Source of the DNA: an uncultured virus (IMG/VR IMGVR_UViG_3300032288_004063)
Taxonomy: Duplodnaviria > Heunggongvirae > Uroviricota > Caudoviricetes
DNA length: 64,000 bases
Direction: 5' to 3' (one strand)
IMG/VR virus record: IMGVR_UViG_3300032288_004063
A program made the position numbers and the translations under genes. The notes beneath the pieces are model-generated. The model was not told the origin of the DNA and did not search any database. It saw nothing but the letters and a program-made list of their open reading frames with translations. Below, in pieces: positions 24,450-33,091 of the stretch; position 1 is the stretch's first letter; every line of letters starts with the position of its first letter.

Positions 24450-26176
24450 TACTCTTTGAAAAAGTTCGTTGGAGAAACTTTCTTTCTACAGGAAATGACT
24501 TCACGGAGATTACACTAAACAAATCTCCTACAACCTTAATCGTAGGAAACAATGGAAGCGGAAAGTCAACACTCTTGGATGCGTTGACTTTCGCTCTATT
24601 TGGTAAACCATTTCGCGGTATCAATAAGCCAGGGCTATTGAATAGCGTCAATGAAAAAGACTGCGTTGTCGAGATAGAGTTCATCATAGGTAAGAAATCC
24701 TACAAGATCCTTCGCGGAATCAAGCCGGGCAAGTTTGAAATCTATTGTGACAATGAACTAGTCAATCAAGATGCGTCTTCGCGAGATTACCAAGAGTATC
24801 TTGAAAAGTTCATTCTCAAGATGAACTACAAGTCTTTTACCCAGATCGTCGTTCTTGGTTCATCTACCTTTGTTCCGTTCATGCAGTTGTCTGCTGCGGA
24901 TCGTCGTGCAATCATAGAAGATCTTTTGGACATACAAATCTTTTCGTCCATGAATGTTGTATTGAAGCAAAAGCTTCAAGCAATCAAGGATGAGATGAGT
25001 GACGTTTCTCATCGTCGGGAAGTTGTAAAGGTCAAGATCGAATCAACGAAAAAGTTGATCAACGAGATTGCCAATACAAAAACTCTTCATATTGAAAAGA
25101 CACAAAGAGACATTGCAAACAGCAAATCTCAAATAGTTACTTTGGAAAAAGAAAAGGCATCTCTTGATCAAGAGATCGTTAAGCTTCAATCTGAAGTCGT
25201 CGGGGAGAAGAAGCTAGTTGGCAAGTCCAACAAGCTAAACAGTCTCATCGTCAAGATACAAGACAATGCCGAGAAGGCACAGAGCGAAATTAATTTCTAT
25301 GAAACCAATGATGATTGCCCGACATGTCGTCAATCAATTAGCGAAGATTTCAAGAAAACCCAGATTCAGACATTTCAAGACAAGATTGCAGAATACGGCA
25401 ATGGTCTTAAGGAAATAGATAATGAATTGGAGAAGATCAATACGCAAATTGCTCAGATCCAAAAGACTTTGAAAAAGATAAAGGACAAGACATTCAAGTC
25501 TCAGGAAAAAAATGCAACTATTACTGCAGTCAATGGTTATATCCAGAAGCTACAAAAAGAAATTGATACCATTGAGCAGAACAAGACAATAGACACAACG
25601 CATACTGATGATCTAAAAGCACTTGAAAAGCAACTGAATGATCTTGTTGAAGACGAGAAGAGATTGGTCAATGATAAGCATCATCATGAACAAGTTTCTA
25701 TTCTACTGAAAGATACTGGTATCAAGACCAAGATCATAAAGCAATATCTTCCAGTCATGAACAAGCTAATCAACAAGTATTTGAGTAGCATGGAGTTCTA
25801 TGTCAACTTCAATATCAATGAAAGCTTTGAGGAGGTCATCAAGTCTCGCCATCGTGATGAATTTGCCTATGAGAATTTTTCTGAAGGCGAAAAGCAAAAG
25901 ATCGATCTGGCATTGCTGTTCACTTGGAGAGCAATTGCCAAGATGAAGAATAGCGTGAATACGAATTTGCTGATACTGGATGAAATCTTTGATAGCTCAT
26001 TGGACTCAAATGGCACGGAAGAACTGTTGAAGATTTTGAACTCCATAAGTAGTGATACCAATGTTTTTGTTATTAGTCACAAGGGTGCATTGCTACAGGA
26101 TAAATTCAAAAGCACAATTGCATTTGTAAAGCACAACAATTTCTCAAGAATTTCTACTGAGGCTAGTTCCTTTTAG
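24446..26176 (+). CDS. gp46: Recombination ATPase gp46 (Rad50/SbcC-like)
   Basis: Walker [10 protein letters not shown], zinc hook CPTC, FSEGEK signature, LILDE, ISHK motifs. Confidence 0.96.
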
Positions 26177-26741
26177 TTCCTTTTAGACCATTATCATGTC
26201 GTCCCGGTTTGAAACCGAATGGTATAGAATCATCTATTAATATCTGTTTTGATTCTATACCGTTTGTTATCCATTTTCTCTTTTGACCTTTTTTAGGGGA
26301 AACAAACATACCTTTTAATCCTAAATTCCAAGGTTTTTTGTTGTACATGGGATTTTTCTTACCTAATTTTGATAGGCGAATATTTTCTGCGTGTTTTTTT
26401 GTTTTTTTAACACCTAAAGTTTTTAGTCTTATTTTATTTCGCGTTGATTCTTTGATTGATAGAGCGCAACCACCAACGCCTCCCACTTTTAGATTATAAG
26501 TATCTTTTCTTTTAACAAAATCCTCATTCACAAGTTCTTTTTCTTTTCGATAAGCGTCATTTTTATGCATAAATATGTACAATATATCTTTGATAAAATT
26601 GTCTATACCATATTTACCTATAGCACGTTTCAGATATATACTTGATCCCATATAATCATCGTATATATTTGATGTTTTATGGACACCAATATAAATTTTG
26701 CCGTTGACTTTATTAGTGATTTGATATATAATGTAATACAT
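26163..26741 (-). mobile_element. Free-standing GIY-YIG (Seg-like) homing endonuclease with NUMOD3-like DNA-binding repeats
   Basis: [30 protein letters not shown], then ESTRNKIR...[13 protein letters not shown]-rich; the only credible minus-strand gene in the window. Confidence 0.88.
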
Positions 26742-27971: not shown

Positions 27972-29210
27972 ATGATGTACCAGAAATATACTGTTGCCGA
28001 TGTAAAAGAGTCTTCAGCGAGAAGACTGTTCAACGTCATTTCCACATTTGCAGGTGGCGGTGGATCTTCCACCGGCTATCGTCTTGCGGGTGGAAATATC
28101 ATTGCAATCAACGAATTCGTTGAAGAAGCAATCAAGACATACTCGACAAATTTTCCAGATACAAAGATCATTCCCGGAGACATCAAGAAATTGACAGGTA
28201 AGGACTTTCTAGAGACGGCTGGTCTAAAGCCAGGCGAACTTGATATACTCGATGGATCCCCTCCATGCTCTGCATTTTCTGTTGCTGGCAAGAGAGAAAA
28301 AGGTTGGGCTGGATATGTCAAAGATACACGCAATTCATATTTTGACGACGAAGGCAATGTCATTGAAGAAGGTGATATTGAAGTTCAAGAGGGTGTAAAG
28401 AAATACTCGGACGGAAAGACTGTCGAGAGTATTGAAAACCTGTTTCTTGAATTCATTCGCATCGCCGAAGAAATCAAGCCAAAGGTAATTGTTGCCGAGA
28501 ACGTCAAGGGTATCACTTTTGGTGAAGCTAAAGAAAAGCTGTATGAGTTCATCAACTCGTTTGAAAAGATTGGCTATCAAGTAACATATCAAGTCTTGAA
28601 TGCCGCAGACTTTGGAGTTCCGCAAGGTAGAGAGCGCACTCTTTTCGTATGCATTCGTGAAGATGTTTGTGATGCTCTAGATTTGAACTTTCTAAATATG
28701 CATTCAACCGTGTTTCCTAATCCAACACATACAAAGCATGTGACGCTTCGCCAAGCTATCGAAGACGTAGAAAACGATCCAAATGAGATTCAAGAACTCA
28801 AGGACTATGTCATGGGGGGATTTCAAAAAGATTGGATCACGAAACTTCCATTCAATCCTACAAGACACACAAAGCCTTCCGACAAGGAATACCGCGATTG
28901 GAATCCAAAGGCATCATGTTTCAACATGATTCGTCCATGTCCAGATCTTCCATGTCCTACGTTGACACAACGTGGACAACAGAAATCTGTCTCAGGTGTA
29001 TTTCACTATGCCGAAAATAGAAAGTTCACGATCAAGGAATTGAAGCGTATCATGAGTCTTCCTGAGGACTTTGTTCTTACTGGCAATTTTGATCAACAAG
29101 CCGAACGTATCGGTCGAATGGTTGCGCCCAAGATGATGGCTGCATTGGCAAGCAGCATTTATGAGAATGTTTTGAAACCATATAATGATAGACAAAATAC
29201 TATGCGATGA
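27972..29210 (+). CDS. dcm: C5 cytosine DNA methyltransferase family; predicted carboxymethyltransferase
   Basis: Motif I FAGGGG, IV DGSPPC, VI ENV, VIII QGRER; motif X reads IGRMVAP (R in place of canonical N). Confidence 0.9.
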   Translation: MMYQKYTVADVKESSARRLFNVISTFAGGGGSSTGYRLAGGNIIAINEFVEEAIKTYSTNFPDTKIIPGDIKKLTGKDFLETAGLKPGELDILDGSPPCSAFSVAGKREKGWAGYVKDTRNSYFDDEGNVIEEGDIEVQEGVKKYSDGKTVESIENLFLEFIRIAEEIKPKVIVAENVKGITFGEAKEKLYEFINSFEKIGYQVTYQVLNAADFGVPQGRERTLFVCIREDVCDALDLNFLNMHSTVFPNPTHTKHVTLRQAIEDVENDPNEIQELKDYVMGGFQKDWITKLPFNPTRHTKPSDKEYRDWNPKASCFNMIRPCPDLPCPTLTQRGQQKSVSGVFHYAENRKFTIKELKRIMSLPEDFVLTGNFDQQAERIGRMVAPKMMAALASSIYENVLKPYNDRQNTMR

Positions 29211-30671: not shown

Positions 30672-30713
30672 TTGGCAATTCCAATATAGATATGTGGTGG
30701 ACTAAAAAAGTCC

Positions 30714-30742
30714 TTGTCTTTACCAAAACAGCAGAGTATACT
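30714..30742 (+). promoter_or_regulatory. Sigma70-type early promoter (predicted leaderless transcript)
   Basis: TTGTCT-17bp-TATACT; ATG begins 7 nt after the -10. Confidence 0.7.
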
Positions 30743-30748
30743 AACCAC

Positions 30749-33091
30749 ATGATGACAGAAAACAGCAACTCCCAAATTCATAGGGAAGCCAAGAGTCAGC
30801 TTGCGCGTCTCATGGCAAACGAAAACCTGACCGTCGAGCATCGTGCGGTTCGTACGGCGTATTTTGATGTTGAGAAGCGTCTTCTTGTCCTTCCAATTTG
30901 GAAGAACATGACTGGCAACATCTATGATACGCTCGTCGGACACGAGGTCGGTCACGCTCTTGACACTCCGCCGTCAGCGGATATTCTAAAGAATGCCATC
31001 GAATCGATTGATGCCAAGAACCCTCGCGGTTCCAAGATGTTTTTGAATGTGATCGAAGACGGTCGCATTGAGAAGCTTGTGCGTCGTCGTTATCCTGGTA
31101 TGCGTCGTTCCTTCTCCCTTGGCTATAAGGATTTGCTGGATCGCAATTTCTTTGGCACCGCTGGACGTAGCATCAAGTCTTACGGTCTGATTGACCGCAT
31201 CAATCTTCATTTGAAGCTTGGTTCTGCAATCATCATCGACTTCACTCCGGCTGAGAAGAAGCTGGTTGAAATGGCTGAGAATTGCGAAAGCTTTGACGAC
31301 GTTGTCAAGGCTGCTCAGGCAATCTATACTTATTGTAAAGAACATAAGGAAGATCAGCCTGAGAATGACGAGGAAAACTATTACGACGATTCGGAGTTCT
31401 ACCCCGATGAGAGTGGTGAGTTTTCCATGCCGTATGAAGACGAGTCTGGCGAGGAGTCTGGCGAGGAGTCTGGTGAAGAATCTGATGAGGCTGACGATTC
31501 TTCATCGGAAGATTCCGATGACTCAGATGAGACTGATAAGTCTGACGGCAAGACTTCGGATGAAGGTTCTGCTGGTGAATCCGGCAAGGACGATGAAGAT
31601 GAGGATTCTTCTGATTCCGAAGATGATGATTCGGAGATCAGTTCTTCCGACGAAGATGAAATTTCCGATCAGGAGACCAAGTCTCCTCTTGATGAGGGAT
31701 TTAGACAGAATCCGACTTCCGAGACTCAGGAGTCTTGGGAATCCAAGAAGGATGAACTCGTTAGGGAAGGGACCAAGGGCTATGTTTATGTAAACATTCC
31801 CGAGGTCAACGGTCATAATTGGATTGTGCCTTACAAGCAGGTTCATGATGGTGGCAATGGCTTCGTCGGTCTTTCTGAGGTGGCTCGTCGCGGCGACATA
31901 TATGGATTTATTCCTGGTCATACCAAGGAGCAGGTTCTTGCAGAGTGCATCAAGTTCCGTTCGGAGAACGCTGCGATAATTTCATACATGGTCAAGGAAT
32001 TTGAGATGCGAAAGGCGGCTGATACCTATTCTCGCTCGTCAATTTCGAAGACTGGTGTGATCAATACCAACAAGCTGCATACCTACAAGTATAATGATGA
32101 CCTGTTCAAGCGCATCACCAATGTGCCTACCGGAAAGAATCATGGACTTGTAATGTTCATTGATTGGTCTGGATCGATGACAACTTCAATTTCTGGATTG
32201 ATTGAGCAGCTTGTAAATATGGTCATGTTCTGCAAGCGTGTTCAGATTCCGTTTGACGTTTATGCATTTTCAAATGTATATGGACATAAGAATATGTCCG
32301 CCGAAGAGATCAGTGCTATCGAAGCACGTCAGCATTCATACAAGGATGGTGATTTGCTTATCAATTCAAGCTTGTATCTGCTTCAGTTGCTGTCTTCAAG
32401 GATGAAGGAAGGCGAGTTCAATCAGGCTATCGGTAATCTTCTGATGCTATGCAAGTTCTTTAGGAAAATGAATGCTGCTGTAGATATCAGGCCTTTTACT
32501 TTCGGTTCTACTCCTTTGGATGCGACTATTGTTTGTGCGACAAGCATTGTCAATGCTTTTCGTGCAAAGCATAAGCTTCAGATCGTCAACACCGTCATTC
32601 TTACCGATGGCGAGGATACAGACAGTATTGAGGTTAAGAACAAGGGCTATAATCCATATACTCAAGATGTGGTTCTTCGTGATACCGTCACCAAGAGTGA
32701 AGCTGTTGTTGATAATCTGTGGGATAATTCTGCCACAACGGCAATCTTCTTGAATCGTCTGCGTGAGAGAACTGGAACGAATGTGATTGGATACTATATA
32801 AATTCCGGTCGAGTGAATTCCATGTCTTTCTCACAGTATTCAGCAGATCCAAATCAGGTCGAGAAGCTGTATAAGGACTATGTAAAGAACAAGTACATTG
32901 AAGTTACCAATCGTGGTTATTCTGTGTACTACATTCTCAAGGCTGAGGAGATGAACATTCAGACCACCGAACTTAATCTTGGTAAGGCAACTACAGCAAA
33001 GAGCATTGCGAAGGTATTTGCCAAGTATTCCAAGAACAAGTTGGACAATCGTATTGTTCTTTCTCGGTTCATTGAGAAAATTAGTGCTTGA
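30749..33091 (+). CDS. CobT-like protein: HExxH metallopeptidase-like domain + acidic linker + VWA domain
   Basis: HEVGHA, NVIEDGRIE, D/E/S-rich linker, MIDAS DWSGS, TPL, LTDGED; adjacent to an AAA ATPase; start set at MMTENS. Confidence 0.8.
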   Translation: MMTENSNSQIHREAKSQLARLMANENLTVEHRAVRTAYFDVEKRLLVLPIWKNMTGNIYDTLVGHEVGHALDTPPSADILKNAIESIDAKNPRGSKMFLNVIEDGRIEKLVRRRYPGMRRSFSLGYKDLLDRNFFGTAGRSIKSYGLIDRINLHLKLGSAIIIDFTPAEKKLVEMAENCESFDDVVKAAQAIYTYCKEHKEDQPENDEENYYDDSEFYPDESGEFSMPYEDESGEESGEESGEESDEADDSSSEDSDDSDETDKSDGKTSDEGSAGESGKDDEDEDSSDSEDDDSEISSSDEDEISDQETKSPLDEGFRQNPTSETQESWESKKDELVREGTKGYVYVNIPEVNGHNWIVPYKQVHDGGNGFVGLSEVARRGDIYGFIPGHTKEQVLAECIKFRSENAAIISYMVKEFEMRKAADTYSRSSISKTGVINTNKLHTYKYNDDLFKRITNVPTGKNHGLVMFIDWSGSMTTSISGLIEQLVNMVMFCKRVQIPFDVYAFSNVYGHKNMSAEEISAIEARQHSYKDGDLLINSSLYLLQLLSSRMKEGEFNQAIGNLLMLCKFFRKMNAAVDIRPFTFGSTPLDATIVCATSIVNAFRAKHKLQIVNTVILTDGEDTDSIEVKNKGYNPYTQDVVLRDTVTKSEAVVDNLWDNSATTAIFLNRLRERTGTNVIGYYINSGRVNSMSFSQYSADPNQVEKLYKDYVKNKYIEVTNRGYSVYYILKAEEMNIQTTELNLGKATTAKSIAKVFAKYSKNKLDNRIVLSRFIEKISA
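31442..31489 (+). repeat. 12-bp tandem repeat (ESGE units) in the acidic linker
   Basis: gagtctggcgag x2, gagtctggtgaa, gaatctgatgag. Confidence 0.85.

Follow-up and report, generated by a model that had tools for sequence, protein, structure and literature searches.

A predicted carboxy-SAM-dependent cytosine C5-carboxymethyltransferase with arginine at the motif X asparagine position in an uncultured T4-like phage

Does an arginine at the motif X asparagine position of a phage cytosine C5-methyltransferase homologue, encoded beside a homologue of CmoA, which synthesises carboxy-S-adenosyl-L-methionine (carboxy-SAM, Cx-SAM), mean that the enzyme transfers carboxymethyl rather than methyl groups to DNA? 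The question is raised by an open reading frame in the window, as we call the whole stretch of DNA analysed here: 64,000 nt of an uncultured T4-like phage, with ~38% G+C. Its gp46 homologue shares ~50% identity with the corresponding proteins of Methylophilales phage Melnitz and the marine cyanomyoviruses, and a blastn search of 50,697 phage records returned no close DNA relative, the best match having 19% coverage at 70% identity. A promoter consensus scan found 17 occurrences against a mean of 12.5 in shuffled sequence, nothing clearly over background. The features of the locus are listed in Table 1.

Table 1. Features of the cmoX-cmoY-cmoA locus, in window coordinates.
Feature	Position	Strand	Assignment or basis
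cmoX, C5-cytosine methyltransferase homologue, 412 aa	27972..29210	+	predicted Cx-SAM-dependent DNA cytosine C5-carboxymethyltransferase
Codon of catalytic Cys99, SPPC motif	28266..28268	+	aligned to SpCmoX C98
Motif X AERIGRMVAP, R382 for the canonical Asn	29100..29129	+	translation and alignments
cmoY, asparagine-synthase-like ATP-dependent amide ligase (predicted), 263 aa	29185..29976	+	PF00733; homology to S-B43 CmoY
cmoA, carboxy-S-adenosyl-L-methionine synthase homologue, 232 aa	29973..30671	+	TIGR00740; homology to S-B43 CmoA

The cmoX product matches Pfam family PF00145 (E 3.8e-58; 197.9 bits against a gathering cutoff of 22) and contains FAGGGG (motif I), SPPC with C99 (motif IV), E176-N177-V178 (motif VI) and Q218-G-R220-E-R222 (motif VIII). 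An earlier note on this DNA had described the catalytic PC, ENV and QxRxR motifs as intact, and all three are read in the translation. The note had also reported an Asn-to-Arg substitution in motif X, GRMVAP with G381 and R382. The motif X codons, gcc gaa cgt atc ggt cga atg gtt gcg ccc, encode A377 E378 R379 I380 G381 R382 M383 V384 A385 P386, with ggt (G381) at 29112-29114 and cga (R382) at 29115-29117; the residue numbering in the note is thus exact, and its interval, 29100-29135, also spans K387 and M388.

When PDB sequences were searched with phmmer, the best match to this protein was 8YF3_A (E 1.2e-109), with M.HaeIII as runner-up (E 4.7e-26). Entry 8YF3 is CmoX of Synechococcus phage S-B43 (SpCmoX) bound to Cx-SAM at 1.9 Å, one component of the CmoA-CmoX-CmoY system of that phage (Yang et al., Nat Commun 2025;17:281, December 2025; PMC12783734). 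The two proteins align over their full length with 50% identity (401 columns, E 5e-129). An AlphaFold2 model of the window protein, built on a 30-row alignment of environmental relatives (alignment A1), has a mean pLDDT of 83.6 and a pTM of 0.84, and Foldseek ranks 8yf3 first among PDB structures (E 1.4e-38; TM-score 0.93 when normalised by target length, 0.75 by query length), followed by M.HaeIII and M.HhaI (0.71-0.77 by target length). The window protein is the longer of the two CmoX proteins by 40 residues overall, with ~26 extra residues after the catalytic loop, and the model has low confidence in this region (approximately residues 100-160, pLDDT <60).

By sequence alignment R382 occupies the place of the motif X Asn, as the note had proposed. 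In the HMMER alignment to M.HhaI, residues 342-399 lie ungapped over chain residues 264-321, which by count puts R382 on N304; against M.HaeIII, 'igrmvap' is placed over 'ignavpv', which matches R382 with the Asn of IGNAVP; and R382 pairs with R350 of SpCmoX in a gap-free block, ERIGRMVAP over ERVGRMVPP. The correspondence is based on these sequence alignments and on the published overlay of 8YF3 with 1MHT (PMC12783734). The other cofactor and catalytic residues named in PMC12783734 follow the same pattern: F25, E47, F48, D69 and S95-P96-P97-C98 of SpCmoX are F26, E48, F49, D70 and S96-P97-P98-C99 of the window protein, and all of these are invariant across alignment A1.

The biochemistry of the S-B43 enzymes has been published (PMC12783734). 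SpCmoA converts SAM and prephenate to Cx-SAM; SpCmoX, with C98 as nucleophile, accepts Cx-SAM as its sole donor and yields 5-carboxymethylcytosine (5cxmC) in GC motifs. R350, in place of N304 of HhaI, is in direct contact with the carboxymethyl group of Cx-SAM, and the natural Arg was called by the authors a mirror of M.MpeI N374K. SpCmoY is homologous to asparagine synthetase and couples glycine to 5cxmC in an ATP-dependent reaction, and the glycine amide was found in native S-B43 phage DNA; a CmoB homologue is absent from S-B43 (PMC12783734). When IMG/VR v4, UniProtKB and MGnify phage sequences were screened for both SPPC and R350, 5,615 candidate CmoX proteins were obtained, whose contigs also encode 4,257 CmoA and 2,251 ligases (PMC12783734). 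Both signatures used in that search, SPPC and the R350-equivalent Arg, are present in the window protein.

We read the window frame as a CmoX orthologue which, together with the coupled cmoY and cmoA, would give this uncultured T4-like phage the three-enzyme hypermodification cassette known from S-B43, and we put the probability of this reading at about 0.9. Homology, matching residues, the predicted fold and gene linkage across relatives speak for it; an identity of only ~50% to the characterised enzymes and a CmoA score under the curated NCBIfam cutoff speak against it. The earlier note had argued that a basic motif X residue beside cmoA supports Cx-SAM use. This is published for SpCmoX (PMC12783734) and, at 50% identity with R382 on R350, is likely to hold for the window protein; for the use of Cx-SAM, for what the Arg does and for the ligation of glycine we draw on the biochemistry of the orthologue, and by analogy the window copy would share its donor, GC target and amine with S-B43. 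The further prediction of the note, that an R382N mutant should revert to methylation, is contradicted by the orthologue, since SpCmoX R350N accepts neither SAM nor Cx-SAM (PMC12783734).

Overlaps join the three genes into a single translationally coupled unit, in which cmoA is the second gene downstream of cmoX: cmoY starts 26 nt inside the end of cmoX, and in the sequence ATGA the start codon of cmoA overlaps the stop codon of cmoY. The cmoY product matches PF00733 (Asn_synthase) over residues 14-133 (E 8.5e-12), has no glutaminase domain and carries an SGGVDS PP-loop. It aligns end to end with S-B43 CmoY at 50% identity (264 columns, E 4e-94), and a sequence search of the PDB found no solved relative at E 0.01 or better. 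For the cmoA product the top NCBIfam match is TIGR00740 (CmoA), with E 1.9e-30 over positions 14-239 of 239 and a score of 106.3 bits, below the curated cutoff of 193.3. Its full-length matches in the PDB are 1IM8 (YecO) and 4GEK (E. coli CmoA), both with E ~1e-20, and it is 49% identical to S-B43 CmoA (235 columns, E 8e-74).

Scanning IMG/VR with the window transferase gave 79 loci with 62-100% identity, among them contigs that encode a transferase 99.5-99.8% identical to that of the window (100% when rounded). Motif X is readable in 77 of them, two being cut before the motif. Position 382 is Arg in all 77, and position 381 is Gly in 76 and Ala in one; the Arg is not a chance or sequencing variant. 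GSPPCS is found in the window and in 78 of the 79 relatives, the remaining locus being cut before the motif. These data bear on whether the gene could be an inactive or degenerate methyltransferase relic, a reading for which one could cite the loop after the catalytic Cys, with its low model confidence and its insertion relative to SpCmoX. Since the frame is open, the catalytic motifs are intact and the catalytic residues are invariant while identity ranges from 62 to 100% over 79 environmental contigs, we reject a dead relic and consider it extremely improbable.

Arg, cmoA and cmoY were counted in the 79 loci by scripted tblastn within the flanking sequence. A cmoA homologue is present in 74, and all five misses are contig ends: the contigs of L013 and L014 end inside the transferase gene, and those of L079-L081 end 257-1,109 nt past it. 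In L077 and L078, the closest relatives of L079-L081, cmoA lies 1,164 nt downstream of the transferase. A cmoY homologue accompanies the transferase in 67 of the 79 loci. At least one of the 12 cmoY-negative loci (L016) has the full 6-kb flank on both sides, so some relatives seem to be without a nearby ligase.

The same linkage is seen in cultured phages. In deposited phage genomes, tblastn detected a transferase homologue in 62 records (E 1e-20 or better) and a CmoA homologue in 66 (E 1e-10 or better); we compared 13 representative transferase loci and four cmoA-anchored loci, and aligned 15 transferases with that of the window using MAFFT. Six cultured lineages are of the Arg type (S-B43, RN05-S, S-CRM01, PaBG, TurkishDelight and Mcat8), and all have a CmoA-like gene near the transferase, at distances from a few hundred bases to 1.4 kb. 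The cmoA genes of S-B43, RN05-S, S-CRM01 and PaBG were detected by tblastn; for PaBG, TurkishDelight and Mcat8 the top NCBIfam match is TIGR00740 (E 7.6e-38, 2.6e-25 and 2.2e-17, respectively, all under the curated cutoff). A custom CmoA profile matches all six, five of which are in its training set, RN05-S being the sole independent match. Seven lineages have another residue at the Asn position: Leu in Melnitz, Asn in CL131, and Met in FPSV-S2, LoVEphage, tooticki6-1, BMBtp14 and phi18:3. In none of the seven does the CmoA profile match an ORF within 6 kb at E 1e-3 or better, and the host genera of these phages are absent among the organisms of the 66 CmoA-positive deposited records.

Melnitz has the nearest non-Arg relative of the window transferase, at 40% identity. 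A second IMG/VR scan, with the Melnitz transferase as query, gave 80 loci (597 kb in all). Leu is present in all 79 in which the position is readable, 74 of them with ARIGLMVAP. No CmoA-like ORF was found in the 80 loci, against 73 of 79 by the same method in the window-like set. The gene downstream of the Melnitz transferase matches Pfam Tet_JBP (PF12851, E 3.6e-11), and a homologue of this oxygenase gene is present in 65 of the 80 Melnitz-like loci. That the GR variant might co-segregate with a neighbouring cmoA, a check put forward in the earlier note, is borne out by these counts, with cmoA in 74 of the 79 window-like IMG/VR loci and in none of the 80 Melnitz-like loci. Sister groups with a near-identical motif X differ at residue 382 and, in parallel, in their partner gene, cmoA in one and TET in the other.

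This parallel difference also bears on the reading of the window protein as an ordinary SAM-dependent 5mC methyltransferase in which the Arg is merely tolerated and cmoA serves another role, for example tRNA cmo5U. All canonical C5-methyltransferase motifs are indeed present in the window protein, and the classical role of CmoA is in tRNA modification (PMC12783734). However, the orthologue with the same Arg accepts Cx-SAM only (PMC12783734), the Arg is invariant in the readable relatives (77/77) and linked to cmoA, the Leu-type sister clade never occurs with cmoA (0 of 80 loci), and cmoX, cmoY and cmoA are coupled by their overlaps. On the strength of the Cx-SAM-only orthologue, the invariant cmoA-linked Arg and the gene coupling we reject an ordinary 5mC methylase, which we hold to be very unlikely, and retain the assignment as CmoX.

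The implication runs from Arg to cmoA and not strictly back. In the Staphylococcus phages SPbeta-like and vB-SscS-F1, cmoA lies at a distance of one or two genes from the gene of an HhaI-like C5-methyltransferase, which by MAFFT alone has Gly at the motif X Asn position; the placement of the Gly is uncertain, because HMMER aligns the SPbeta-like transferase with M.HhaI only as far as a point short of motif X. Since these lineages pair cmoA with a Gly-aligned transferase, Arg may not be the sole possible solution. Erwinia phage Y3 and Alcaligenes phage Afa-NA1 carry cmoA, and nothing within 8 kb is annotated as a cytosine-C5 methyltransferase.

Residue 382 is one of several that separate the sister groups. 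In alignment A1, which holds 24 Arg-type and six Leu-type rows, 27 columns are fixed differently, including R382L, S100P (adjoining the catalytic Cys) and A175C (ahead of ENV), so that more than one residue may take part in the choice of donor. In a maximum-likelihood tree of 45 transferases, whose root is arbitrary, the seven Leu-type rows make up one supported clade and the five Met-type rows another; the window protein falls in a supported clade of three Arg-type rows; the deep forks are open, and PaBG, TurkishDelight, CL131 and Mcat8 sit on long branches. We offer as a tentative and, taken as a whole, rather doubtful proposal that position 382 is a natural donor switch in a lineage of GpC-type phage transferases (Arg with cmoA and Cx-SAM versus Leu with TET and SAM), with co-varying sites such as S100P, and that the window cassette might in addition write a base other than 5-glycylcarboxymethylcytosine by way of another amine or motif.

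A mechanism for the window cassette can be proposed by analogy with S-B43. CmoA would make carboxy-SAM from SAM and prephenate. CmoX would flip the cytosine out and Cys99 would attack C6, as in ordinary C5-methyltransferases, after which the carbanion at C5 would accept carboxymethyl from Cx-SAM rather than methyl; Arg382, in the motif X Asn position, would pair with the carboxylate and keep plain SAM out. CmoY most likely adenylates the carboxyl group of 5-carboxymethylcytosine and then ligates an amine, which is glycine in S-B43. The outcome would be a bulky base that shields the phage DNA from host restriction.

The last steps of this scheme are those on which the window could depart from S-B43. 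The target-recognition domain of C5-methyltransferases sits between motifs VIII and IX, and this is the least conserved region in the alignment of the window protein with S-B43 CmoX. With a recognition region less conserved than the core and a poorly modelled insertion of ~26 residues, GC specificity of the window enzyme is an extrapolation. Carboxymethylation could thus be the same and the end product or target different, with CmoX reading a non-GC motif or CmoY ligating an amine other than glycine. Window CmoY is only 50% identical to SpCmoY, other amines are predicted for ligase clusters with differing pocket residues (PMC12783734), and no cmoY is present in the examined flanks of some close relatives (L015-L018, and also RN05-S and S-CRM01). 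Against such a departure, 50% identity is well over the ~30% threshold that holds together the largest ligase cluster, to which SpCmoY belongs (PMC12783734). A preference for GpC is also reported for the sister TET-linked phage methyltransferases (PMC8256090), and GC-type specificity therefore seems old in the group. We regard a different amine or motif as unlikely and favour, by extrapolation from S-B43, 5cxmC in GC motifs with glycine as the ligated amine.

The deduction of Cx-SAM use from the sequence was chemically right but already known; the idea is not new, because a paper of December 2025 had described the Arg signature and what it does in the structure, as well as its association with cmoA and the amide ligase gene downstream (PMC12783734). 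Judged by its sequence, the window protein is a further member of the CmoX family, at 50% identity and in a different gene order. A modest new piece is the contrast of Arg/cmoA with Leu/TET in sister clades, and this contrast suggests Arg to Leu, rather than Arg to Asn, as the informative mutant for donor selectivity. Engineered carboxymethyltransferases serve in methylation sequencing methods.

Among known systems, M.HhaI and M.HaeIII share the fold and the catalytic motifs I, IV, VI, VIII and X with the window protein, but have Asn at motif X (N304 in HhaI), use SAM as donor and are only ~20% identical to it. M.MpeI (4DKJ) is a distant sequence match (E 2.6e-06). Its N374K variant (ref. 21 of PMC12783734) is alike in that a basic side chain in place of the motif X Asn enables transfer from Cx-SAM to cytosine C5; N374K occurs also in PMC12015181 and PMC13288465. 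The variant differs in being engineered, bacterial and CpG-specific, with Lys rather than Arg, whereas the natural CmoX is reported to use Cx-SAM only and to act on GC (PMC12783734).

The TET/JBP systems are closer in setting. As reported by Burke et al. (PNAS 2021, PMC8256090), a phage C5-methyltransferase and a TET enzyme produce SAM-derived 5mC at GpC and convert it to 5hmC, so that, as in the predicted window pathway, a handle is added to cytosine C5 after replication for further decoration. The Melnitz-like loci, which we set beside this system by gene arrangement, come like the window from T4-like marine phages and have a near-identical motif X (ARIGLMVAP versus AERIGRMVAP). They differ in having Leu rather than Arg, no cmoA in 80 loci and a Tet_JBP gene in most of them (65/80), for which reason their handle is presumably methyl and then hydroxymethyl, not carboxymethyl.

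The closest counterpart is the CmoA-CmoX-CmoY cassette of S-B43. The gene order there is A-Y-X, against X-Y-A in the window, and S-B43 CmoX is the shorter protein by 40 residues, chiefly through the insertion after the catalytic loop of the window enzyme. The two cassettes agree in having three full-length homologous proteins (50%, 50% and 49% identity), tightly linked genes and a T4-like phage as carrier, and their CmoX proteins agree in SPPC, in having Arg where motif X normally has Asn, and in every cofactor contact named in PMC12783734.

In Arg-type cassettes, the motif X Asn of the C5-methyltransferases is replaced by Arg (R382 of CmoX in the window). No cmoY homologue was found in the examined flanks of some Arg-type cmoX–cmoA pairs (L015–L018, L002 from phage RN05-S and L003 from S-CRM01); these may make plain 5-carboxymethylcytosine as end product, or may employ a different ligase encoded elsewhere. 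ParB-like genes precede the more distant cassettes of TurkishDelight, PaBG and Mcat8, and the ligase of TurkishDelight is a 466-aa homologue of glutamine-hydrolysing asparagine synthase. Both features agree with the published account (PMC12783734), which describes an association with ParBc and a cluster of ligases that use ammonia. In one locus (L024) the transferase match, 88% identical, has a stop codon within its translation and cmoY lies ∼ 1.5 kb further downstream than in other close relatives; the gene may be a disrupted copy or an insertion may be present.

CmoX of the window and its close relatives carry ∼ 26 extra residues compared with SpCmoX of Synechococcus phage S-B43. They follow the catalytic Cys loop and are predicted, with low confidence (pLDDT < 60), to form short β hairpins. 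The 799-aa ORF beyond the cassette matched no Pfam family and contains a long acidic tract rich in Ser, Asp and Glu (about residues 215–330). A 192-aa ORF has weak GIY-YIG and SegE-like matches (E-values of 5e-4 and 1e-3, under the Pfam cutoffs), which suggest that it may encode a homing endonuclease.

Coordinates of the features discussed (L-numbers are fetched loci: cultured-phage records and IMG/VR contigs around transferase or cmoA homologues)
Feature	Position	Strand	Remarks
CmoX extra stretch	window 28290-28400		residues about 107-143
192-aa ORF	window 26163-26741	(-), opposite	between gp46 homologue and downstream genes
799-aa ORF	window 30692-33091	(+)	directly 3' of cmoA
Distant Arg-type cassette	L085:4278-9306		Streptomyces phage TurkishDelight
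Distant Arg-type cassette	L087:5066-9029		PaBG
Distant Arg-type cassette	L084:5487-7687		Mcat8
Transferase match with stop codon	L024:6001-7236
cmoA + HhaI-like C5-methyltransferase	L094:7974-9673		Staphylococcus phage SPbeta-like
cmoA + HhaI-like C5-methyltransferase	L095:7950-10468		Staphylococcus phage vB-SscS-F1
cmoA locus	L093:7935-10526		Erwinia phage vB_EamM_Y3
cmoA locus	L096:7932-8684		Alcaligenes phage Afa-NA1
Met-type transferases	L086, L089, L090, L091, L092		Flavobacterium, Bacteroides, Bacillus, Cellulophaga phages
Leu-type transferase locus	L083:4010-6194		Methylophilales phage Melnitz-3; IMG/VR counterparts L097-L176

cmoA also occurs apart from Arg-type transferases. The two Staphylococcus phages encode an HhaI-like C5-methyltransferase (E-value of 3e-26 against M.HhaI) one or two genes from cmoA, and in vB-SscS-F1 an Asn-synthase-like gene sits between the two. 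In the MAFFT alignment, which is uncertain at motif X, these transferases carry Gly (VGGV) instead of Arg in place of the Asn; judged from sequence, they may represent a second, Arg-less route to Cx-SAM use. Within 8 kb of cmoA in Y3 and Afa-NA1 there is no annotated cytosine-C5 methyltransferase, and no Cx-SAM consumer is evident. The Y3 gene, of a kind found in 48 Erwinia phage records, is accompanied by genes for an Asn-synthase-like protein and for a 2OG-Fe(II) oxygenase.

The phage C5-methyltransferases whose Asn position is occupied by Met (GMSVPP) group as one supported clade, and none has cmoA within 6 kb. Nearest to the window's enzyme among the non-Arg transferases are those of Melnitz-3 and its counterparts, whose motif X mostly reads ARIGLMVAP, with Leu at the Asn position in all 79 readable loci. 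None of the 80 loci contains cmoA, and the clade provides a natural contrast for the Arg/cmoA clade. Downstream of the transferase, 65 of the 80 carry a homologue of a gene with a match to Tet_JBP (Pfam, E-value of 3.6e-11), and the locus looks like the phage C5-methyltransferase/TET arrangement described in PMC8256090.
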